DNA of 50,015 nucleotides, taken from positions 1-50,015 of the forward strand of contig WFNS01000294.1 in assembly GCA_015488495.1 (NCBI GenBank), given 5' to 3'. Under the pieces are notes generated by a model that worked only from the letters and a program-made list of their open reading frames with translations, ran no database searches and was not told where the DNA came from. Of the stretch, positions 3,037-35,426 are shown piece after piece. The number at the start of each line of letters is the position of its first letter. Positions within the stretch are counted from its first letter, which is position 1. Both the position numbers and the translations under genes were made by a program. The DNA is from Gammaproteobacteria bacterium. Lineage in GTDB: Bacteria; Pseudomonadota; Gammaproteobacteria; Thiohalospirales; Thiohalospiraceae.

Positions 3037-3864
3037 ATGGCAGTAGTCAAGGCAAAACCGACATCGGCAGGTCGCCGCTTCGTGGTCAAGGTGGTGACTC
3101 CGGAGCTTCACAAGGGGAAACCTTATGCCCCTCTGCTGGAGAAGAAGAGCAAGACCGGAGGGCGCAACAACCTGGGTCGCATCACCTGCCGCCACCAGGG
3201 CGGGGGGCACAAGCAGAAATACCGGATCATCGACTTCAAGCGTAACAAGGACGGGATTCCGGGAAAGGTGGAACGTATCGAATACGATCCCAATCGCAGC
3301 GCCCATATCGCCCTGATCCGCTATGCCGACGGGGAGCGTCGCTATATCATTGCGCCCAAGGATCTGAAGGCCGGCAGCGAGATCATTTCCGGACAGGGTG
3401 CTCCCATCAAGCCGGGCAACACCCTGCAGTTGCAGGACATTCCCGTGGGAACCACGGTGCACTGCGTGGAAATGCGTCCTGGCAAGGGAGCCCAGCTGGC
3501 GCGCGCTGCCGGGGCCGCCGTTCAGTTGGTGGCCCGCGAAGGCCGCCACGCCACGCTGCGCCTGCGTTCGGGCGAGATGCGCAAGGTGCCCGCGGAGTGC
3601 CGTGCCACTATCGGTGAGGTGAGCAACTCGGAGCATGGTCTGCGCAAGCTGGGCAAGGCCGGCGCCAAGCGTTGGCGCGGGGTTCGTCCGACGGTTCGTG
3701 GTGTGGCCATGAATCCCGTGGATCACCCTCACGGTGGTGGCGAAGGCCGTACTTCCGGGGGGCGGCATCCGGTATCGCCATGGGGCACCCCCACCAAGGG
3801 ATATCGGACCCGCAGCAACAAGCGTACTGATTCGATGATTGTTCGTCGCCGTCACGGCAAATAG
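3037..3864 (+). CDS. rplB: 50S ribosomal protein L2
   Basis: 275 aa with the conserved ...[17 protein letters not shown]... motif. Confidence 0.97.
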
Positions 3865-3884
3865 ATGAAGAAGAGTAGGTAACC

Positions 3885-4157
3885 ATGCCGCGTTCAGTTA
3901 AGAAAGGGCCTTTTGTCGATTTGCATCTGGCCAAGAAGGTGGAAGAGGCTCGTGCCTCAAACAGCAAGAAGCCGATCAAGACCTGGTCGCGACGTTCCAT
4001 GATTTTGCCGGAGATGATTGGTCTGACCATCGCGATACACAACGGCAGGGCGCATGTCCCAGTGCTGATTTCGGAGAATATGGTGGGCCACAAGTTGGGT
4101 GAGTTTGCGCCGACACGCACCTACCGGGGCCACATGGCAGACAAGAAATCCAGATAG
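3885..4157 (+). CDS. rpsS: 30S ribosomal protein S19
   Basis: 90 aa, [12 protein letters not shown]...[13 protein letters not shown]. Confidence 0.97.
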
Positions 4158-4168
4158 GGTGAGGTTCG

Positions 4169-4501
4169 ATGGAAGCAACAGCTAAGTTACGGTTTGCGCG
4201 GGTCTCACCGCAAAAGACCCGACTGGTGGCCGACATGATTCGCGGCAAGTCACTGGAGAGCGCCTTGCAGACCCTTTCGTTCAGCCCCAAGAAGGCGGCG
4301 GTGATCGTGAAGAAGGTGCTGGAGTCTGCGATTGCCAACGCGGAGCACAACGAAGGCGCGGATATCGACGAACTGAAGGTCTCCAGGATCTACGTTGACG
4401 AAGGTCCGACCTACAAGCGCATGCGGGCCCGGGCGAAGGGGCGAGGTAACCGCATTTTGAAACGCACCAGCCACATCACTGTGGTGGTGTCCGACAGATA
4501 G
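4169..4501 (+). CDS. rplV: 50S ribosomal protein L22
   Basis: 110 aa, L22-like ([17 protein letters not shown]); operon order. Confidence 0.96.
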
Positions 4502-7642: not shown

Positions 7643-7948
7643 ATGGCAAAAGTCAGCATGATCAACCGGGAAAAGAAGCGGGCGGCGACGGTACGGAAGT
7701 ACGCCGCCAAGCGGGCAGCTCTCAAGGCAAAGATCAAGGACCCGAATCTGAGCCTGGAAGAGCGCATGGAGGCCCAGCGGCAACTGCAGAAGCTGCCTCG
7801 CGATGCTAGTCCGGTGCGTCAGCGGAATCGCTGCCGGCTGACCGGTCGTCCCCATGGTTACTACCGTAAGTTTGGCCTGGGTCGAAACAAGCTGCGTGAG
7901 TCGGTGATGCGCGGCGACGTGCCGGGTGTTCGCAAGGCCAGCTGGTAG
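7643..7948 (+). CDS. rpsN: 30S ribosomal protein S14 (long form)
   Basis: 101 aa, [13 protein letters not shown]..., C-terminal ...[12 protein letters not shown]. Confidence 0.96.
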
Positions 7949-7979
7949 GTATTCTTTATATTCAGGAGCAATTGCGGTT

Positions 7980-8375
7980 ATGGGCATGACTGATCCGATA
8001 GCAGACATGTTGACCCGGATCCGGAACGGGCTGAGGGCATCCAAGAAGGAGGTGGTGTTGCCATCCTCCAAGCTCAAGGTTGCCATCTGTTCCGTTCTCA
8101 AGGACGAAGGTTACATTGAAGATTATTCTGTTCAGGATATCGATGGAAAGCCGGTATTGACCATTCGTCTCAAGTATCACCAGGGCAAGCCGGTGATCGA
8201 GATGCTGAAGCGGGTGAGCCGACCGGGGCTGCGCCAATACAAGGGCAAGGAGGATCTGCCCAAGGTGAGTGGCGGGCTGGGTGTGGCAATCGTCTCCACA
8301 TCGGCCGGCGTGATGACCGATCGGGCTGCCCGCGAGGCAGGTCATGGCGGCGAAGTGCTCTGTTTCGTGTTCTAA
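7980..8375 (+). CDS. rpsH: 30S ribosomal protein S8
   Basis: [17 protein letters not shown]... The start at ATG 7980 has a CAGGAG RBS; the ORF-track start at 7926 overlaps rpsN and is unlikely. Confidence 0.95.
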
Positions 8376-8384
8376 GGGGGCGTT

Positions 8385-8918
8385 ATGGCAAAGGCATGGA
8401 AAAATCCGGTTGCTATTCCCTCCGGGATAGAGGTTGGCCTGGCGGATGGCAAGATAACGGTCAAAGGTGCCAAGGGGGCCTTGCAGCAGACTCTTCATCC
8501 TTCCGTCGACGTTTCGCAGGAGGAGGGTGCGCTGCTCTTCTCTCCTCGTGACGATGACCGCAAGTCGAAGGCGATGACCGGCACCATGCGGGCTCTGGTT
8601 CGCAATATGCTGGTTGGGGTAACCAACGGATTCGAGAAAAAGCTGCAGCTCGTTGGCGTTGGTTATCGCGCCCAGGCGCAAGGTCAGGCGCTCAACCTCA
8701 ATCTTGGCTTTTCCCATCCCATCGACTACAAGGTCCCGGAGGGAATCTCGATAGAGACCCCCAGCCAGACCGAGGTGGTGGTTAAGGGGATCGACAAGCA
8801 GAAAGTTGGGCAGGTGGCAGCCGAGATTCGCGCATTTCGTCCGCCGGAACCCTACAAGGGGAAAGGCGTCCGCTATGCAGACGAGCATGTGGTTCGCAAA
8901 GAGGCCAAGAAGAAATAG
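8385..8918 (+). CDS. rplF: 50S ribosomal protein L6
   Basis: 177 aa, L6-like (...[22 protein letters not shown]...). Confidence 0.96.
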
Positions 8919-8933
8919 CAGCAGGCAGATACG

Positions 8934-9287
8934 ATGGAAAAGAGACAATCCCGCATACGTCGCGCCCGCAAGTCTCGGGCCCGGATCAGACAGCAGGGTG
9001 TGCATCGCCTTTCGGTGCATCGTACGCCGCGTCACATCTATGCCCAGGTTATCGATCCTACCGGTTCCAGGGTGGTGGCCGCTGCTTCCACCGTGCAGGC
9101 GGAGCTCAGAGGCGGTCTGAAATCTACCGGGAACATCGAAGCGGCGGTAGCGGTTGGTCGGTCGATTGCCGAAAAGACCAAAGCGGCCGGAATCAGTAAA
9201 GTCGCGTTCGACCGGTCCGGGTTTCAGTACCACGGGCGGGTGAAAGCGCTGGCGGATGCGGCCCGCGAGAACGGGCTTGAGTTCTAG
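8934..9287 (+). CDS. rplR: 50S ribosomal protein L18
   Basis: 117 aa, ...[17 protein letters not shown]...; operon order. Confidence 0.96.
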
Positions 9288-21665: not shown

Positions 21666-21832
21666 TGTGTGCCCGGTACGTTGAGCTGGGCATCGTGTTT
21701 TTTGACCTGCCCATCTCGACAAAGGTGGATTATGTTGAGATGAGAATTGCAAACACGAGCCTTAATTGAAAAGTCTAGTCAAAACATGATGTCTAGCACA
21801 CAGTTAGGGTGAGTTGTGATATGGTTATTGGC

Positions 21833-24061
21833 ATGAGCGAGAAACATGTCGATCTGGTGGGCTATCGGGAGCGGTTGGTTTGCAACGTCGAGCAGGTGGA
21901 TGACATCTTCGAGGATTGCATGGCCGAGGCGCTGGAGATGCTCTCTCCCGAAGGCATCGATCTCTATCTGGCTGGTGCGTCCGTGGTATGTGGACTGGGC
22001 AGAGGTACCGAGTTGGTACTCATCTTTTTACAGGGTATACCCACGGTAGCGAGCATCGTTGGAGAAGATATTATCCCGGAGGTGGTGGATATGACGCGGA
22101 TGTTCTCTGCTACCGCCAATGGCAAGGCCATCAACCCCTTTCTTTCCGTTTTGCCGGCGGTGGCGCGGCGGCTGGAAGAGGCTGAATTGCTGCGGGACTA
22201 TTTTCTTCTCCTGGAGAGGATGGCAAAAGAGGCCAGTGAGGGTCTGATCCCGCTGTTGCGGGGCAGCGATTCCCTATTGGGACAGATCCCATTGGGTGGG
22301 TTGAAGAACTGGATCGAGTATGGGCTGAGGGGCTATCGGTTTCAGCCCCATCGCCTCGCCGACTATTTCAGCCTGCAAACGGCAGACAGCCAGGCAGCAT
22401 TGCAGCGGGAAAGACACGGTACGCTGTATGTGGACAACGAGCGCAAGCTGGAGCTCTGCCTGCATGCTCTCTGGGAACTGGAGGAGGAGTGTCATCCCTA
22501 TTCGCTGGCCTTCGACAGGCTGCGCAAACCTACTCCATACATCGATCGCAAAGGATTCCATCTGCCGGATGTATATGACGATCTGAACGGGGTTTCCGGC
22601 ATCGACCGTTATCGCGCACTGATTGCACACTTGGCGGCACATCGTCTGTTTACCCGTCCTTATGTGGCCGATAACTTCAGCCCTTTTCAACAACTGGCGA
22701 TCGAGGTTTTCGAGGATTCACGGGTCGAGGCACTGGCAATGCAGCGTTTCCCCGGGTTGCGTCGACTGTGGATGGCGCTGCATCCGCTTCCACAGGAAGG
22801 GGAGTGTCCCGCCGACTCGTACTCCTGTATTCGTCATGAACTGGCGATGCTTTCCCGTGCCATTCTGGATCCGGAGCACCCTTACACCGCTCCAAAATTG
22901 CTGGAATACGTTGCCCGGTTCCATGAGCGGATGGCCCGGGATCCCTATGACGAGAAGCTCGCTATCGAACTGGGCGTGGGCTATCTGGCCGCCATCCATA
23001 CCCCAGATTTTCGCAAACCCAAGGTCTGGTTCAAGGATACCGAGGTCACCTATCGGGATGACAACCGCTACATGTGGCTCTTTCTCGAAGATACCGACGA
23101 CGAGGACGACTTTCATTCCGATCATGCCGCGGCCAACCCCCGTATGGTGGACGAGAATCAGGCCCACTTTTCCCGGCACCATGCGGAGTGGGACTATCAG
23201 ACCAGCAGTTATCGCCCCGACTGGGTGACGGTGTATGAATCTTTGCCACCGAATGGAAACGCGGCGGATATCGATTGGCTGTTGAAGAAAAATGAGTTGT
23301 TGGCCAAGCGGTTGAAGAGGCTGGTTGATCTCCTCAAGCCTCAGCAGCCGATGCGGGTCAGGTACCAGGAGGATGGAGACGAACTGGATCTCGATGTTGC
23401 CATTCGGGCGATGGTGGAGTATCGGGCCGGAATCACTCCTGATACCCGCATCCACATGAGTGAAAAGCATGCGGGGCGGGACATTGCGGTTACTCTCTTG
23501 CTCGATCTTTCAGCCTCCATCAATGAGATACCCGAGGGCTGTGACAAGACGGTGCGGGAGTTGAGCCAGGAGGCGGTGGCGCTGCTGGCCTGGGCCATCG
23601 ACCAGCTGGGTGATCCCTTCGCTATCGCCGGATTTGCCTCCAACACCCGTCACGAGGTTCGTTACCTGCACTTCAAGGGTTTTTCCGAGCCGTGGAACGA
23701 GATCCCCAAGGCCCGGTTGGCGGCGATGGAAGGAGGTTACTCCACCCGTATGGGTGCGGCCATCCGCCATGCCGGACACTATCTTGGCAGACGCAAGAAC
23801 GAGAAGAAGCTGCTGCTCGTCCTGACCGATGGTGAGCCGTCCGATATCGACGTCGAGGATCCGGAATATCTGTTGCACGATACCAAAAAGGCGGTGGATG
23901 AGATCTCATCCGAGGGGGTCTTTACCCACTGCATCTCCCTGGATCCAAAGGCAGATGATTATGTCAGTTCAATCTTCGGCAAGGCCGGCTATGCGGTCAT
24001 CGACCACGTGAACAAGTTGCCGGAACAACTGCCACGGCTATTCATGTCGCTCACCAAGTAG
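21833..24061 (+). CDS. CbbO/NorD-family protein with C-terminal von Willebrand factor A domain
   Basis: About 742 aa. The C-terminal VWA domain has the MIDAS motif DLSASI and LLLVLTDGEPSDID. Length and N-terminal region resemble CbbO/NorD activase adaptor proteins. ATG at 21833 is preferred over GTG at 21809. Confidence 0.8.
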   Translation: MSEKHVDLVGYRERLVCNVEQVDDIFEDCMAEALEMLSPEGIDLYLAGASVVCGLGRGTELVLIFLQGIPTVASIVGEDIIPEVVDMTRMFSATANGKAINPFLSVLPAVARRLEEAELLRDYFLLLERMAKEASEGLIPLLRGSDSLLGQIPLGGLKNWIEYGLRGYRFQPHRLADYFSLQTADSQAALQRERHGTLYVDNERKLELCLHALWELEEECHPYSLAFDRLRKPTPYIDRKGFHLPDVYDDLNGVSGIDRYRALIAHLAAHRLFTRPYVADNFSPFQQLAIEVFEDSRVEALAMQRFPGLRRLWMALHPLPQEGECPADSYSCIRHELAMLSRAILDPEHPYTAPKLLEYVARFHERMARDPYDEKLAIELGVGYLAAIHTPDFRKPKVWFKDTEVTYRDDNRYMWLFLEDTDDEDDFHSDHAAANPRMVDENQAHFSRHHAEWDYQTSSYRPDWVTVYESLPPNGNAADIDWLLKKNELLAKRLKRLVDLLKPQQPMRVRYQEDGDELDLDVAIRAMVEYRAGITPDTRIHMSEKHAGRDIAVTLLLDLSASINEIPEGCDKTVRELSQEAVALLAWAIDQLGDPFAIAGFASNTRHEVRYLHFKGFSEPWNEIPKARLAAMEGGYSTRMGAAIRHAGHYLGRRKNEKKLLLVLTDGEPSDIDVEDPEYLLHDTKKAVDEISSEGVFTHCISLDPKADDYVSSIFGKAGYAVIDHVNKLPEQLPRLFMSLTK

Positions 24062-24078: not shown

Positions 24079-25863
24079 TTATCTCCTGGCCCAGCTCCAG
24101 GAAGACCACCAGCTCCAAATGGACCACCACCTGGGACCTTCGGCACGTCGGCAGGTGACGTTGGTCGTGGCAGTGCCGAATATCGAATTCAGCCGAACCG
24201 GATTTTCGATGCCCCCGACGCAGCTGGCGACAATCTTCCGGTCGCTCCAGGATTCAATGGAGCACCTTTCTCCGTTGCTCGACAAGAGGGTTCCCGAGTC
24301 TTCTGCATCGAGATAGCTGCCAAATCCTGATCCCCAGAGAGTGAGGTGCTCCCCTTCGCATCGAATATCGTCGATGGCAACCTCCGGTTTAATCAAAAAA
24401 TGGATGCTGGTGCTGTTCAGCTCCTTGCCGGATGGATCCCCTTTCGTTATCGTCAGATTGTAGTTTCCGGCGCTCAGATTGGCCGGAATCGTGACCTCCA
24501 TGTGAGTAGATGAAACACTATCCGGATGGATGTCGATCGTGGTACCGTCGTTTCGGGTCAAGCGTAGCCAAGTGCGCTCCTGATTTCCGCTTGTATGGGA
24601 TGACGATAAGGTGTTTACAAAGCCTGAACCTATGATCTGTAGGGTACTTGCAAGACCTGCGGTGACGACCGTTCTGCTGATCTCGCTGATCTCCGGAATA
24701 AGGGTGATATTGTCGAACCGACTGTCTATACTGGCAGAGACCATCTCATCTCGTGAGTTTTTGTGGCAGCCGTCACAGTTCTTCCGGTTGCCGATATGAC
24801 CAAAGAATGGCAGCTCCTCTCCGGCCACTACTCCATCCCCGATTGCATCGTATTCGATGCTGTGCAGTGAAGTTATGCCGTGGCATCGTTCACATCCGCG
24901 GATGGTGAAATCCGGAGGGGCAGAGGGTTGATGGCAGAGGGTGCAACCATGTACCGATCCGCTCCCAGGTTGTCCCACGCCTGTGCCGTGGTGGTTGGCG
25001 TAGTTGATGTTGATGCGTTGTCCGGTAACGTCGTCGATACCGGCAAAATGGCAATAGGTGCAATTGCCCATCGGCCGCCCTGTCTCACCAATGGGCGGGT
25101 TGAAATTTTCCATGATGTATTCGATTTGGGCTTCGGCCTCTTCTTTTCTCCTGAGATCCTCCTCGGTCGGGTTTGGGGGTAGTTCGAGTTTGTAGGCGAA
25201 GGCCGCTTTCAGTGCGCCGCGTAGCTGAACGCGGCTGTCGTAGAATCCGATACCTGGCCATGGCGTGGTTAAGGAAATGTCGTAGTGATTTTCCGGGTCA
25301 TCCGGGTGATTAGCCGGGTCCGGGATGCGGTGGTCCCCATTGGGGTCGTCGATCAGGCTGCCATGACATATATGGCAGTTGGCTTGCTGTGCCCGCTCGG
25401 TCAGGTGATGCACCGTGGCGATTAGTTCGCCCTGCCGGTTTTTTTTCTGGGTATGGCAATTGAGGCAGTCCCGAAAGACAGGGTCACTCGGATCCTGAGC
25501 AAAGCGGAAGAATCCGCCGGAAGGTCTCGACGGGTCTTCCACCCAGTCAATGGCGTGACAAGTTACGCACTTGTGTTCCCCATCGGGTGACTTCTCAGGA
25601 AAGGGTGATGCAGAATATGCCCCAATCGGAGTGTCAATTCTGAGATGATGTCGATCTGGGAGGTAGCCCGATTTCAAAGGGGCCGAGGTGCTCTCCGGTG
25701 CGCCGTGACAGCCGAGGCAGGTGACGAAGGTCATCTCCGCGAACCGTGTATCGGGAATACCAAGATATTGGTTCACGGGAGGTGGTGGAACGCTGGCCCA
25801 AACGGCGCCAGCAGCTAGAGCAGCCATCACCAGTAATATATTGCGCAGTGCGTCCCCTGCCAT
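24079..25863 (-). CDS. Secreted octaheme c-type cytochrome with two IPT/TIG-like repeats and a Trp-rich C-terminal tail (paralog 1)
   Basis: 594 aa. Signal peptide ...AAGAVWA|SVPPPP. Eight CxxCH motifs (CLGCH, CVTCH, CLNCH, CHICH, CTYCH, CTLCH, CERCH, CDGCH). C-terminal repeats carry GSGF motifs. Ends GPRWWSIWSWWSSWSWARR*. Confidence 0.9.
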   Translation of the reverse strand: MAGDALRNILLVMAALAAGAVWASVPPPPVNQYLGIPDTRFAEMTFVTCLGCHGAPESTSAPLKSGYLPDRHHLRIDTPIGAYSASPFPEKSPDGEHKCVTCHAIDWVEDPSRPSGGFFRFAQDPSDPVFRDCLNCHTQKKNRQGELIATVHHLTERAQQANCHICHGSLIDDPNGDHRIPDPANHPDDPENHYDISLTTPWPGIGFYDSRVQLRGALKAAFAYKLELPPNPTEEDLRRKEEAEAQIEYIMENFNPPIGETGRPMGNCTYCHFAGIDDVTGQRININYANHHGTGVGQPGSGSVHGCTLCHQPSAPPDFTIRGCERCHGITSLHSIEYDAIGDGVVAGEELPFFGHIGNRKNCDGCHKNSRDEMVSASIDSRFDNITLIPEISEISRTVVTAGLASTLQIIGSGFVNTLSSSHTSGNQERTWLRLTRNDGTTIDIHPDSVSSTHMEVTIPANLSAGNYNLTITKGDPSGKELNSTSIHFLIKPEVAIDDIRCEGEHLTLWGSGFGSYLDAEDSGTLLSSNGERCSIESWSDRKIVASCVGGIENPVRLNSIFGTATTNVTCRRAEGPRWWSIWSWWSSWSWARR

Positions 25864-25933
25864 GGTGAAACATCCCTCCTGTCCAAGAGTTGCCAGAACG
25901 CTTGGTTGCCGTTACTCGTTTCTTGATAGTTTT

Positions 25934-25962
25934 GTATTGCCGAACTGTGGGGGATTAGTCAA
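25934..25962 (-). promoter_or_regulatory. Candidate sigma70 promoter for cytochrome paralog 1
   Basis: On the minus strand: TTGACT (25962-25957), 17-nt spacer, CAATAC (25939-25934), about 70 nt upstream of the ATG. Weak -10; read by eye only. Confidence 0.25.
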
Positions 25963-26238
25963 TTTTTTCGTTTCTTATCTGAACCCGGTTGTTAGGTGGT
26001 AATCGGGGGCAGATTCGATGCGGCTAGAGCCGTGTCGACGATGGAGCGAGCAACCCCAATCACGTATTCAAATTGCTAATAGGCACCAAGGTGAGCGTCT
26101 TGTGATGCCTCTCACCGGGTTAATGTACCTCCCAAGAAGAAGGCTCAAATTTATTATATCAGGCTGTGCTTACCCACCTTGCTATCCATTATAGCATCCA
26201 AATCCGATCCTGTGATTGTTGAGCAATTTTATTACAAG

Positions 26239-26275
26239 AAAAAAGAGAGGGGAGCCTTATAGCAAGACTCCCCTC
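26239..26275 (-). terminator. Rho-independent terminator downstream of cytochrome paralog 2
   Basis: On the minus strand, GAGGGGAG...CTCCCCTC stem (26247-26275) followed by TCTTTTTT. A second hairpin CCGGCAA/TTGCCGG lies at 26289-26312. Confidence 0.7.
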
Positions 26276-26331
26276 GTCGGCACTTTTCCGGCAAAAGATG
26301 CTGCTTGCCGGTCAGACCCGTATGGTACTAA

Positions 26332-28185
26332 CTAACGGCGTGCCCAGCTCCAGGAGGACCACCAGCTCCAGATGGACCACCATTTCGGCCGACCCGCACT
26401 GTCGGTACCCCCACAGGCGGCACTGGATGAGGCCTCTCCGAAGAGTCCATCGACGGTGACACTGCCGGTGCCGGAGCCACAGTTGGCGACGATCTGGGTG
26501 TCGGACCAGGACTCGACTGAGCAGCTGCCCTCATCGGAGGCCACGCCGAGACCACCACCACCCACAAAGGTGTCACCGAATCCGCTGCCGGTGATGGTGA
26601 CCTTGCCACCACTGCAGCTCACATCTTCAATGTTGACTCCAGGAGCCACCAGGAAGCTCATAGCAGGACTGCGTTTCGCAAACTCGCCACGCCCCCTGAC
26701 CACGTAGAGCTCATAGTTATCGGCGGGCAGGTCTGCCGGGATCACCGCCTTGGCGCTGGTGTAGTCGTATTCCGTCATCGGAATCTCATGCACCTGGCCA
26801 TCGGTCCCTACCAGCTCAAGCCGTGTGCTGGGGCCGTTGAAGCTAGAGCCAGTGATGGTGATCTCCTGTGCCTTACCTGCAACGCTACCCAAAGCGCTGA
26901 TGTCGGAGACACTGGGCGGAACGCCGCCAAGTTCGACACTGCCGTTCAGATAGCTGGCGCTGGCCTGGTAGACCTGTCCGGTTCTGTAGTTGAGGTGACA
27001 GCCCCGACAGTTGAGATCGTTGCCGATGTGGCCCATGAATGGCTTCTCTTCAAAGGGAACGATGCCGTCACCCTCTGCGTCATACTCGATGGCGTGCACG
27101 GTACTGATGGCGTGACACACTTCGCAGCCCCGAATGGTGAAGTTCGGCGGATTCTCGGGCGCGTGGCAGAGATCACACCCATGCACCGAGCCACTGCCCG
27201 GCTGGCCGACACCAGTGGAGTGGTGGTTGGACATGTTGGTGCCAATGTCGTTCTTGGCAAGTCCGGTCCCGGGCTGCACTGCGTCCCCCGGGTTCTCCCC
27301 GGCATAGTGACAGTGCTCGCAGTTACCGGTGCGGCGTCCACCTTGCTCCCCATCGGGTACCAGGATGGCCTGGATATTGCCCGCGGCATCTGTCTCATAC
27401 CGATAGCGCGGCGGGTCGATGACGAACTGCCCTCCCAGCTCATTGGGATCATAGTAGCGCTTGGCAAAATCGGGGCAGTCGGCATAGATTGCCTGCAGCA
27501 TGGAGACCCAGTTGCCTTCGTCGTAGTTGTCTCCAGGCCATGGAGTGATGAGGGAGATATCGTAGAAGTTCCGATCCCCATCCGGCATCACCTCGCCACA
27601 GTGGCGGGCCTTATCAGGATCTGGCGCAGTACCCTGATCGGGAACACGATGGTCATCAGTAGCATTGTTGACCAGGCTACCGTGACATTGATAGCACAGT
27701 TTCTTCTGCGCCTTATCAGTCAGATGGTGCACTGTGGCCGTAAGGTTACCATCGGCATCCTTCTTCTGCTTGTGGCAGTTCAGGCAGTCACGGAACTGAG
27801 GATCCGTCGGCTCCAGCGCGAACTTGAAGTATTGCCCGCCGGGACGATTGGGGTCCTCAAATACGTCGATCGCATGACAGGTGGCACATTTGTGGGTGCC
27901 ATCAGGAGATTTATCCGGGAAGGGAGAGGCGGAGTAGTCCGGATCGATCGGCGTATCGACGCGCAAATGATGCCGGTCAGGCAGATAGCCTATCTTTACT
28001 GGCGCCGGTGCATTCTTGGGATCACCGTGGCAACCCAGACAGGTTTGATATGTCATATCCGCAAAACGCCCATCCGGTATACCCAGATTCTGGTTTACCG
28101 GCGGGGGTGGTAATTTCGCCCAAGCCCCGCCGGCCATCACAATGGCCGCCGTGACCAGGGCTCCTTTCAACAGTTTCCTGAACAT
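26332..28185 (-). CDS. Secreted octaheme c-type cytochrome with two IPT/TIG-like repeats and a Trp-rich C-terminal tail (paralog 2)
   Basis: 617 aa from MFRKLLKGALVTAAIVMAGGAWA|KLPPPP (ATG at 28185; the longer ORF-track start is not supported). Eight CxxCH motifs (CLGCH, CATCH, CLNCH, CYQCH, CEHCH, CDLCH, CEVCH, CRGCH). Ends RPKWWSIWSWWSSWSWARR*. Confidence 0.9.
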   Translation of the reverse strand: MFRKLLKGALVTAAIVMAGGAWAKLPPPPVNQNLGIPDGRFADMTYQTCLGCHGDPKNAPAPVKIGYLPDRHHLRVDTPIDPDYSASPFPDKSPDGTHKCATCHAIDVFEDPNRPGGQYFKFALEPTDPQFRDCLNCHKQKKDADGNLTATVHHLTDKAQKKLCYQCHGSLVNNATDDHRVPDQGTAPDPDKARHCGEVMPDGDRNFYDISLITPWPGDNYDEGNWVSMLQAIYADCPDFAKRYYDPNELGGQFVIDPPRYRYETDAAGNIQAILVPDGEQGGRRTGNCEHCHYAGENPGDAVQPGTGLAKNDIGTNMSNHHSTGVGQPGSGSVHGCDLCHAPENPPNFTIRGCEVCHAISTVHAIEYDAEGDGIVPFEEKPFMGHIGNDLNCRGCHLNYRTGQVYQASASYLNGSVELGGVPPSVSDISALGSVAGKAQEITITGSSFNGPSTRLELVGTDGQVHEIPMTEYDYTSAKAVIPADLPADNYELYVVRGRGEFAKRSPAMSFLVAPGVNIEDVSCSGGKVTITGSGFGDTFVGGGGLGVASDEGSCSVESWSDTQIVANCGSGTGSVTVDGLFGEASSSAACGGTDSAGRPKWWSIWSWWSSWSWARR

Positions 28186-34613: not shown

Positions 34614-35426
34614 CTACGTTCGCTGGAGCACGAGTTCCAGGATCAGTTTGCTGCCGAAGTAACCCACCAGCAAGGCTACCAGTCCGCCCATCGTCCAGCG
34701 AATGGCGGTCCGTCCCCGCCAGCCGAATCGCCAGCGCCCCCAAAGTAGGATGGCGAACATGAGCCAGGCGACGATGGAAAGGACCGTCTTGTGGACCAGG
34801 TGCTGGGCAAAGATATCGTCCACGAACAGGATGCCGTTGAACAGGGCAAGGCTGAGAAAGACGAATCCCAGCCCGATGATCTGGAACAGCAGTCGTTCCA
34901 TGGTCTCCAGCGGGGGCAATGCGCGGATGAAACCGCCGGGCCTGCGGTTACGCAGATGTTTGTCCTGGATGGCGAGCAGGATGGCCTGCAGTGCGGCAAT
35001 ACTGAGCAGGCTGAAAGCCAGGAGGGAGAGCAGGATATGGATCTCCAGACCGGTCGAGGCATTGGTCAGGAGTACCGGTCTGGCCGGTACGAACAGCTGC
35101 ACCGCCAGCGTCAGGGCCGCCAATGGCAACAGGGCGATGGCCAGGTTCTCGATGGGGGTCTTCAATGCCGACAGCAACAGCAGCAGGGCAGCCAGCCAGA
35201 CTGCCAGCGAAGCGACGTTGACCACCTCCAGATCGGTACCCGCAGGGGTGAAGATGGCGCCAAAAAGTGCCACTCCATGCAGTGCCACCCCGAGCAGCCC
35301 ACCCAGAATCAGGGTTTGCCGCGTGATCCCCCAGGGAAAAGGGCGCCTGGTCTGGAGTCTCAACCCAAACAGGAAGGCGACCAGCAGATAGAGCAGTATG
35401 GCTAAGATGCCGGATAGTGTACTCAT
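34614..35426 (-). CDS. Inner membrane protein, cytochrome c assembly (CcsA/YpjD-like) family
   Basis: 270 aa polytopic membrane protein. Its position next to the CorC-like gene matches the ypjD-yfjD pair of enterobacteria. Confidence 0.7.
   Translation of the reverse strand: MSTLSGILAILLYLLVAFLFGLRLQTRRPFPWGITRQTLILGGLLGVALHGVALFGAIFTPAGTDLEVVNVASLAVWLAALLLLLSALKTPIENLAIALLPLAALTLAVQLFVPARPVLLTNASTGLEIHILLSLLAFSLLSIAALQAILLAIQDKHLRNRRPGGFIRALPPLETMERLLFQIIGLGFVFLSLALFNGILFVDDIFAQHLVHKTVLSIVAWLMFAILLWGRWRFGWRGRTAIRWTMGGLVALLVGYFGSKLILELVLQRT

Follow-up and report, generated by a model that had tools for sequence, protein, structure and literature searches.

The cytochrome OmcZ makes Geobacter electrode biofilms conductive, and its family is mined for bioelectronic materials. 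The G. sulfurreducens protein (PDB 8D9M) carries eight haems, all with bis-His ligation, and tandem C-terminal Ig domains; it is made as a 50-kDa precursor, which the subtilisin-like protease OzpA cuts to a 30-kDa form that polymerises into nanowires (PMC9473688). The Geobacter operon has the order omcZ–ozpA–prolyl isomerase, and the family has been curated by the presence of eight haem motifs plus distal HH pairs (bioRxiv 10.64898/2026.07.18.739370). Here we describe two tandem genes, p1 and p2, found in a stretch of 50,015 nucleotides of gammaproteobacterial DNA (contig WFNS01000294.1, positions 1 to 50,015; hereafter the window), the products of which almost certainly belong to the OmcZ family and end in a Trp-rich tail.

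Both genes are located on the minus strand, as are all the features of p1 and p2 given below, at the positions reported in the initial annotation of this DNA: p1 extends over 24079..25863 and p2 over 26332..28185 (stop codons included), corresponding in the list of open reading frames (ORFs) to proteins of 594 and 617 amino acids (aa). The length of p2 was counted from the ATG of MFRKLL, the start used by its orthologs, one of which (P0016) shares both start and length; an AGGAGG-like ribosome binding site was found 8-14 nt 5' of the p1 ATG. The two products are paralogs, 46% identical over 604 aligned columns (E 2e-173). For the first 55 residues of the mature proteins, 42 identities had been counted initially; the recount gave 40.

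Read by eye, both N-termini have the features of a Sec signal peptide with an AxA cleavage site, as initially annotated; they contain no Cys and no lipobox. The predicted cut falls between MAGDALRNILLVMAALAAGAVWA and SVPPPPVNQYLGIPD in one protein and between MFRKLLKGALVTAAIVMAGGAWA and KLPPPPVNQNLGIPD in the other, the mature N-termini of both p1 and p2 then reading [SK][VL]PPPPVNQ. The putative signal peptide of p1 (residues 1-23, cut after VWA; 25795..25863) aligns with the OmcZ signal peptide/VPPPPVNQ junction and is modelled as a helix over residues 2-20; that of p2 (residues 1-23, cut after AWA; 28117..28185) was placed by sequence and by alignment to OmcZ.

Each protein contains exactly eight CxxCH motifs, in a shared order and with no variant motifs, at residues 49, 99, 133, 163, 268, 307, 324 and 363 of p1 and at residues 49, 100, 134, 164, 289, 337, 354 and 393 of p2. 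The conserved His segments DRHHLR, TVHHLT and NHH.TGVGQPGSGSVHGC were also found. In p1, motif count, alignment and Foldseek delimit a haem domain (residues 24-367; 24763..25794) with eight CxxCH and eight distal His. A pair of Ig-like (IPT/TIG) beta-sandwiches follows, at residues 391-492 and 496-567 of p1 (24163..24693) and at about residues 424-586 of p2 (26428..26916, where Pfam TIG matched in two stretches that align to the C-terminal Ig domains of OmcZ). The TIG model scored 25.4 bits for p1 and 30.9 bits for p2 (cut-off 20.9), and the NCBIfam model CoaZ_rpt_PGGG, a 'choice-of-anchor Z' repeat, scored 31.4 bits (cut-off 30) on the p1 Ig-like region. The AlphaFold model of full-length p1 (predicted local distance difference test score, pLDDT, 77.9; predicted template modelling score, pTM, 0.77) contains both sandwiches, with pLDDT ~90. 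The two beta-sandwich repeats predicted initially are therefore present in both proteins; as to the GSGF motifs ascribed to them, p1 has GSGF twice, whereas p2 has GSSF and then GSGF. Both proteins end in a Trp-rich tail, recognised from the sequence and from homolog comparison (p1, EGPRWWSIWSWWSSWSWARR, 24082..24141; p2, GRPKWWSIWSWWSSWSWARR, 26335..26394), and terminate in R-P-[RK]-WWSIWSWWSSWSWARR; no other reading frame of the window ends in a tail of this type.

A sequence search of the PDB retrieved the OmcZ chain 8d9m_A (473 aa) with E 6.2e-39 for p1 and E 1.4e-35 for p2, and the OmcZ chain 7lq5_A (258 aa) with E 3.6e-20 and E 2e-19, respectively. The alignments to 8d9m_A covered residues 14-182 and 267-549 of p1 and residues 2-186 and 288-586 of p2, taking in the signal peptide/VPPPPVNQ junction, the haem motifs, the HH pairs and both Ig-like domains, with the Ig-like pair aligned to OmcZ residues about 285-461. 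When the full-length model was searched with Foldseek, the best PDB folds were tandem Ig/IPT domains and OmcZ was not among the 50 matches listed. Since the Ig matches swamped this search, the haem domain was modelled alone (AlphaFold2, residues 24-385, pLDDT 75.7), and its sole significant match in the PDB was 7lq5_A (E 4.8e-10, probability 1.0, 28% identity; target-normalised template modelling score 0.62), the next match having E = 2.

In an alignment of 69 family members the eight CxxCH, which align with the OmcZ motifs, are invariant, and the invariant His are the eight of these motifs and exactly eight others (in p1 numbering H72, 73, 152, 153, 291, 292, 334 and 356). This is the number that bis-His ligation of eight haems, as predicted here, requires. 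Three HH pairs among the distal His are aligned with QQHH, TPHH and DTHH of OmcZ. The Pfam and NCBIfam scans yielded weak generic multihaem matches, TIG and the 'choice-of-anchor Z' repeat, which explains why the initial annotation could not place the proteins and regarded them as of an unassigned family, neither OmcS nor OmcZ. That view is refuted by the match to OmcZ over the whole architecture and by the fold match to OmcZ only, a strong full-length match to a characterised family having been named beforehand as the outcome that refutes it. The two genes are fresh members of a family whose existence and wide distribution have already been described. What had been said of them otherwise, namely secreted octahaem c-type cytochromes with tandem IPT/TIG-like domains, encoded by separately transcribed paralogs, is supported.

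We propose that p1 and p2 are OmcZ-family pro-cytochromes which are exported and cleaved in trans and whose haem domain conducts outside the cell, an explanation that, taken as a whole, we consider fairly probable. Sec export would be followed by a cut after AxA, leaving an x-x-PPPPVNQ N-terminus, and eight bis-His haems would be acquired in the periplasm. The Ig-like pro-region and the Trp-rich tail would hold or route the protein at the cell envelope; a subtilisin-like protease of the OzpA type, encoded elsewhere in the genome, would cut the 22-27-residue linker after haem 8, and the freed haem domain, of about 345-375 residues, would conduct electrons outside the cell, probably as a polymer. 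Sec export, eight bis-His haems and electron transfer outside the cytoplasmic membrane are predicted by homology with high confidence, and a surface or extracellular electron conduit, as had been suggested initially, appears to be the most likely role. Cleavage by a trans-encoded S8 protease with polymerisation into OmcZ-like filaments is given at best an even chance, the localisation, processing and polymerisation of the two proteins all being inferred.

Several observations weigh against this proposal, and two of them, the lack of the OmcZ cleavage motif and the presence of large insertions in a loop, have lowered our confidence in cleavage and polymerisation. The stretch in which OzpA cleaves OmcZ is matched in p1 by the linker that joins haem 8 to the first Ig-like domain (residues 368-390; 24694..24762), a candidate protease site with pLDDT ~60 in 371-380. 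However, the OmcZ cleavage motif CH-WSWFGN/SS (cut at the slash) is not found in either protein: CHKNSRDE in p1 and CHLNYRTG in p2 occupy its place, and the sequence after haem 8 reads CHKNSRDEMVSAS and CHLNYRTGQVYQ, respectively. Between haems 4 and 5, p1 has an insertion of ~58 residues and p2 one of ~78, which neither OmcZ nor the protease-linked subtype found in relatives (see below) possesses. The spacing between these haems is 105 in p1 and 125 in p2, in agreement with the extra p2 insertion noticed initially, compared with 57 in the S8-linked relatives and ~47 in OmcZ. The p1 insertion (about residues 183-262; 25078..25317; query gap 183-266 relative to OmcZ) is predicted to form a helical subdomain, with helices at 206-253 of pLDDT 84-95; that of p2 (about residues 184-283; 27337..27636; query gap 187-287) includes the extra residues C196 and C237, and the two are poorly alignable to each other. 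Such insertions could block polymerisation of the OmcZ type.

At the second haem site p1 and p2 have a canonical CxxCH, and G. sulfurreducens OmcZ has CX14CH, a loop that lies in the subunit interface (PMC9473688); most members of the OmcZ family have the canonical form (bioRxiv 10.64898/2026.07.18.739370). No Peptidase_S8, peptidyl-prolyl isomerase (PPIase) or tetrahaem partner was detected in the window by Pfam scans of most ORFs >=200 aa or by tblastn. In addition, the AlphaFold models were built without haems and their confidence in the haem domain is moderate. OmcZ differs from p1 and p2 in other respects as well: the haem domains are just 28% identical; an 8-residue insertion, GQPGSGSV, precedes haem 6 in p1 and p2; these bear an extra 20-residue Trp-rich tail, whereas OmcZ extends at most 12 residues past the aligned region; no ozpA adjoins the two genes; and the host is a gammaproteobacterial lineage of metagenome-assembled genomes (MAGs), labelled Chromatiales, with several samples from hydrothermal-vent metagenomes.

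The homolog set splits into subtypes by motif spacing. A shorter subtype has a mature length of ~525-538 aa, and seven of its ten tabulated copies were found with a tetrahaem gene upstream (product of 170-230 aa) and with genes for a Peptidase_S8 and a SurA-like PPIase downstream. The S8/PPIase operon context was seen in contigs L003, L087, L130, L142 and L229, and no S8 gene was detected beside the copies in L054 and L220. Homolog P0018, which is 45% identical and shares the tail, is encoded in a tetrahaem–omcZ-like–Peptidase_S8–SurA-like PPIase operon that mirrors the omcZ–ozpA–prolyl isomerase arrangement of Geobacter. One MAG labelled uncultured Chromatiales bacterium (GCA_964557025.1) was found to contain both an S8-linked copy (CAZKYF010000023.1) and an ortholog of p2 (CAZKYF010000017.1; 80% nt identity), which makes it plausible that the protease acts in trans on p1 and p2. 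The related contigs belong to uncultured MAGs, which are labelled Chromatiales or Gammaproteobacteria bacterium, and several were obtained from hydrothermal-vent metagenomes.

The tetrahaem gene lies directly 5' of the omcZ-like gene (L003:9234-9935, plus strand; L130:7441-7956; also L087, L142, L229, L054 and L220). Its small product resembles the N-terminal half of OmcZ (PDKHHLKVG, FRDCLYCH) and in L003 ends in a long, Met/Gly-rich GGGM repeat (GGGMGGGM...GCG). A shortened member of the family, encoded beside a p2-type gene (L090:1856-3094, minus strand), retains the first three haem motifs only, joined directly to Ig-like domains and a Trp-rich tail.

As the main alternative, these OmcZ homologs could be neither processed nor polymerised, functioning instead as monomeric, tail-anchored octahaem cytochromes of the envelope, with the Ig-like domains as a stalk. 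The haem domain would then be a relay or serve as terminal reductase or oxidase, on the outer face of the outer membrane or on a periplasmic membrane face, which is close to the electron-conduit idea of the initial annotation. The lack of a protease gene beside p1 and p2 or within the window is in agreement with this, as are the unconserved cleavage motif and the large, confidently folded haem 4-5 insertions, by which both proteins depart from the S8-linked subtype. The tail is strictly constrained although cleavage would discard it with the pro-region, and the distant OmcZ-like proteins P0078, P0083, P0084, P0097 and P0106 end in a hydrophobic helix plus an RRR-type basic cluster, an ending typical of anchors. 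However, the S8-linked subtype bears the same tail (P0017, P0018), indicating that the tail is compatible with processing; the flexible linker after haem 8 is present as in OmcZ, and a protease-encoding operon co-occurs in a related genome. We consider permanently anchored monomers unlikely, if well short of negligible, and retain the trans-cleaved pro-cytochrome as the preferred explanation.

The Trp-rich tail is the novel part of these proteins and is not represented in the Pfam and NCBIfam releases used: neither the full proteins nor the isolated 32 aa gave a match to it in Pfam (E up to 1) or NCBIfam (E up to 10), bearing in mind that HMMER filters may drop very weak matches. Its consensus, GRPxWWx[IL]WSW[WF]xxW[SG]Wx[RG]R-COOH, was present in 70 of the 70 closest homolog clusters (36-99% identity), and all matches of 34% identity or less were without it. 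Besides the distant homologs with a hydrophobic helix, three others (P0092, P0114 and P0119) end in a basic Cys motif, KPxKPC[KR]G[KR]GC[NS]K; in an NCBIfam scan neither type of ending was matched. The occurrence of alternative endings at one position suggests 'choice-of-anchor' behaviour across the family.

The aromatic stretch of the tail comprises 13 residues, WWSIWSWWSSWSW, of which seven are Trp, five Ser and one Ile/Leu. With Wimley-White values, the summed interfacial partitioning energy of this core was calculated as ~-12.6 kcal/mol, which is strongly favourable. The hydrophobic moment, for a helix or a strand, was not above that of shuffled sequences, and a reading of the tail as an amphipathic helix found no specific support.

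In the word-indexed protein database a doubled 40-aa tail gave no candidates. A tail profile of 30 columns, run with no word index on 1.84 billion representative proteins, retrieved nine proteins at E <=0.001. Six were OmcZ-like proteins or fragments thereof; the remaining three carried Lcl_C and Ig-like domains (P0154), Polysacc_lyase (P0157) or DUF6973 (P0159). Pattern scans of DNA added tail carriers with Amidase_3 (L066), Lcl_C (L128, L136) and DUF6973 (L144) domains: the pattern used on genome contigs gave ~15 real tails, most matches being chance Trp-rich frames, and a second pattern used on metagenome contigs gave 28 real tails among 128 matches, the other 100 being noise. N-terminal signal peptides could be read from the sequence in at least four of the five tail-carrier families, DUF6973 being unclear. 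Since it is found on unrelated exported proteins, the tail is a portable C-terminal module, and in this it behaves like a sorting or anchoring signal. The P0157 lyase has an adjacent paralog without the tail, in a locus with an exopolysaccharide (EPS)-type glycosyltransferase. ORF clustering of 41 tail-bearing loci showed no recurrent sortase-like gene; the recurrent ORFs were hslR, purD, purH, the von Willebrand factor A (VWA) gene described below, S8, PPIase and shadow ORFs only.

In one hydrothermal-vent contig (L128:3-1391 and 3658-4281) two tandem genes encode Lcl_C + Ig-like + tail proteins, and are flanked by a fragment of a multihaem cytochrome with many CxxCH and by a membrane protein that is ResB/Ccs1-like by eye.

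The anchor-like character attributed initially to the tail is supported, and three functions may be considered for it: interfacial membrane anchor or sorting tag, docking of a SurA-like chaperone or a protease, and polysaccharide-binding peptide. The first of these is a possibility, at less than even odds: the tail could be a C-terminal signal, not catalogued so far, by which a group of uncultured Gammaproteobacteria anchors or sorts a small secretome. This secretome would include several OmcZ-type paralogs, a peptidoglycan amidase, a polysaccharide lyase, adhesin-like Lcl_C proteins and DUF6973. Such a signal would work unlike the known CTERM signals with a transmembrane helix; it could, for instance, be a Trp anchor at the membrane interface or a tag recognised by a dedicated envelope factor. 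On the cytochromes it would keep the pro-form at the envelope until release of the conductive haem domain.

That the tail instead docks to the SurA-like PPIase or to the S8 protease through an Ar-x-Ar motif, or is a peptide binding matrix polysaccharides, seems improbable. SurA prefers Ar-x-Ar peptides, and WSW, WSWW and WSWF are motifs of this kind; the canonical operon includes a gene for a SurA-like PPIase, and G. sulfurreducens OmcZ has WSWF at the OzpA cleavage site. However, the tail carriers that are not cytochromes do not adjoin a PPIase or S8 gene. The polysaccharide version draws on the other carriers, which act on or bind polysaccharides (Amidase_3, the Polysacc_lyase of the EPS-type locus, Lcl_C). 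In the OmcZ chain 8d9m_A the WSWF is found at residues about 274-284, just before the OzpA site (CH-WSWF-GN/SS); the gammaproteobacterial clade has a WSW[WF] core at the extreme C-terminus and is without it after haem 8. The shared WSW[WF] may be a coincidence or a relocated recognition element.

An assignment to the outer-surface multihaem cytochromes of the MtrC/OmcA/MtrF type rather than to OmcZ, for which a match of p1 residues 44-169 to Pfam PF22113 (MtrC/MtrF domains II/IV; 35 bits, cut-off 30) could be invoked, has next to no probability and is effectively refuted, since that match spans the first four haem motifs of p1 only and has no counterpart in p2, NCBIfam TIGR03507 (OmcA/MtrC) scored 10.7 bits against a cut-off of 209.3, the haems number eight and not ten, and no MtrC-like chain was found among the PDB sequence or fold matches, in which OmcZ was the top or only one.

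A terminator-like hairpin and a promoter-like site between p2 and p1 suggest that the two genes are separate transcription units. The hairpin, which resembles a strong intrinsic terminator (26247..26275; 13-bp stem and T-run), is located 57 nt past the p2 stop codon, consistent with the p2 terminator predicted initially. The sigma-70-like promoter candidate for p1 (26188..26216; 10/12, with a TG-extended -10) was identified by consensus match alone. The long upstream regions noted earlier as 470 and 330 bp measure 468 bp for p1 and 329 bp for p2. The sole Rfam result at the locus, BjrC68, was sub-threshold and sat on the terminator hairpin, and was rejected. The paralogs are probably used under different conditions, or with different partners or surfaces. 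An ORF of 441 aa (26788-28113, plus strand) runs antisense within p2; the corresponding frame is likewise open in 26 related loci. Nothing sets this ORF apart, and in all likelihood it is a shadow ORF that arises from the GC-rich coding strand.

The window is otherwise a housekeeping region, with tuf, ribosomal-protein operons, rpoA, rho, hslR, purD, purH, dusB, corC, thiC and aspS. It also contains, convergent with p1, a gene (21809-24061, plus strand) whose product of 750 aa has a VWA domain at the C-terminus and was judged by eye to be CbbO/NorD-like; 17 bp lie between the stop codon of this gene and that of p1. No AAA+ partner was identified beside this gene, the flanking ORFs scanned being rho and p1; in relatives, rho and the VWA gene are separated by a DUF3135 gene. 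The synteny p2–p1–VWA, with intact haem motifs, was found in four related contigs (L001, L002, L124 and L125); two of them show ~97-98% DNA identity to the window. In L002 a group II intron-type reverse transcriptase gene (RVT_1 + GIIM; 7892-9256, minus strand) lies beside the VWA gene, and the 97% alignment of this contig to the window stops before it. About 6.4 kb from p2, the window encodes a Cytochrom_C_asm (CcsA/YpjD-like) membrane protein (34614-35426, minus strand), which may be tied to cytochrome maturation or may be merely a conserved housekeeping neighbour.

A small number of targeted literature searches found no description of the gammaproteobacterial clade, of its paralog subtypes or of the tail. 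The window shows a distinct gammaproteobacterial branch of OmcZ with several structurally different subtypes, at least two of which co-occur in one MAG. If p1 and p2 form wires or conduits at the surface, they suggest that extracellular electron transfer occurs in a group with which it is not known to be associated, and they would provide natural variants that carry insertions in the loop between haems 4 and 5. If the tail is a sorting or anchoring signal, it represents a new way of placing proteins in the envelope of Gram-negative bacteria and could serve engineering as a compact tag; otherwise, what remains is a routine family assignment.

Among described systems, the decahaem cytochromes MtrC and OmcA resemble p1 and p2 as extracellular multihaem electron carriers, and differ in haem count, fold and domain plan. 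The membrane-proximal external region (MPER) of HIV gp41 (...LWNWF...) and indolicidin (...WPWRR) are Trp-rich interfacial membrane peptides, with which the tail shares, by analogy alone, a very high Trp content and terminal Arg; LWNWF itself occurs in the tails of P0037, P0065 and P0068. There is no homology, and the tail is without significant amphipathic periodicity relative to shuffled sequences. The tripartite signals (PEP-CTERM/exosortase, GlyGly-CTERM/rhombosortase and MYXO-CTERM) also occur at the extreme C-terminus of several unrelated proteins, and the tail has the corresponding parts, a short G-R-P-x signature, a hydrophobic/aromatic stretch and a basic RR; moreover, the p1 Ig-like domain scores as an NCBIfam 'choice-of-anchor' repeat. 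The stretch is, however, too short and polar for a classical transmembrane helix of ~20 residues, and no curated model matched. G. sulfurreducens has an OmcZ-like octahaem paralog, GSU1334, encoded apart from the omcZ–ozpA operon (PMC9473688); by description only, p1 and p2 stand in a similar relation to the S8-linked copy. The closest likeness is to OmcZ itself (GSU2076; PDB 7LQ5, 8D9M), with which p1 and p2 share PPPPVNQ after the Sec signal, the order of the eight haem sites, eight distal His with three HH pairs among them, and a linker followed by two C-terminal Ig-like domains, while the paralogous subtype of their relatives sits, as in Geobacter, in an omcZ–S8 protease–PPIase operon.

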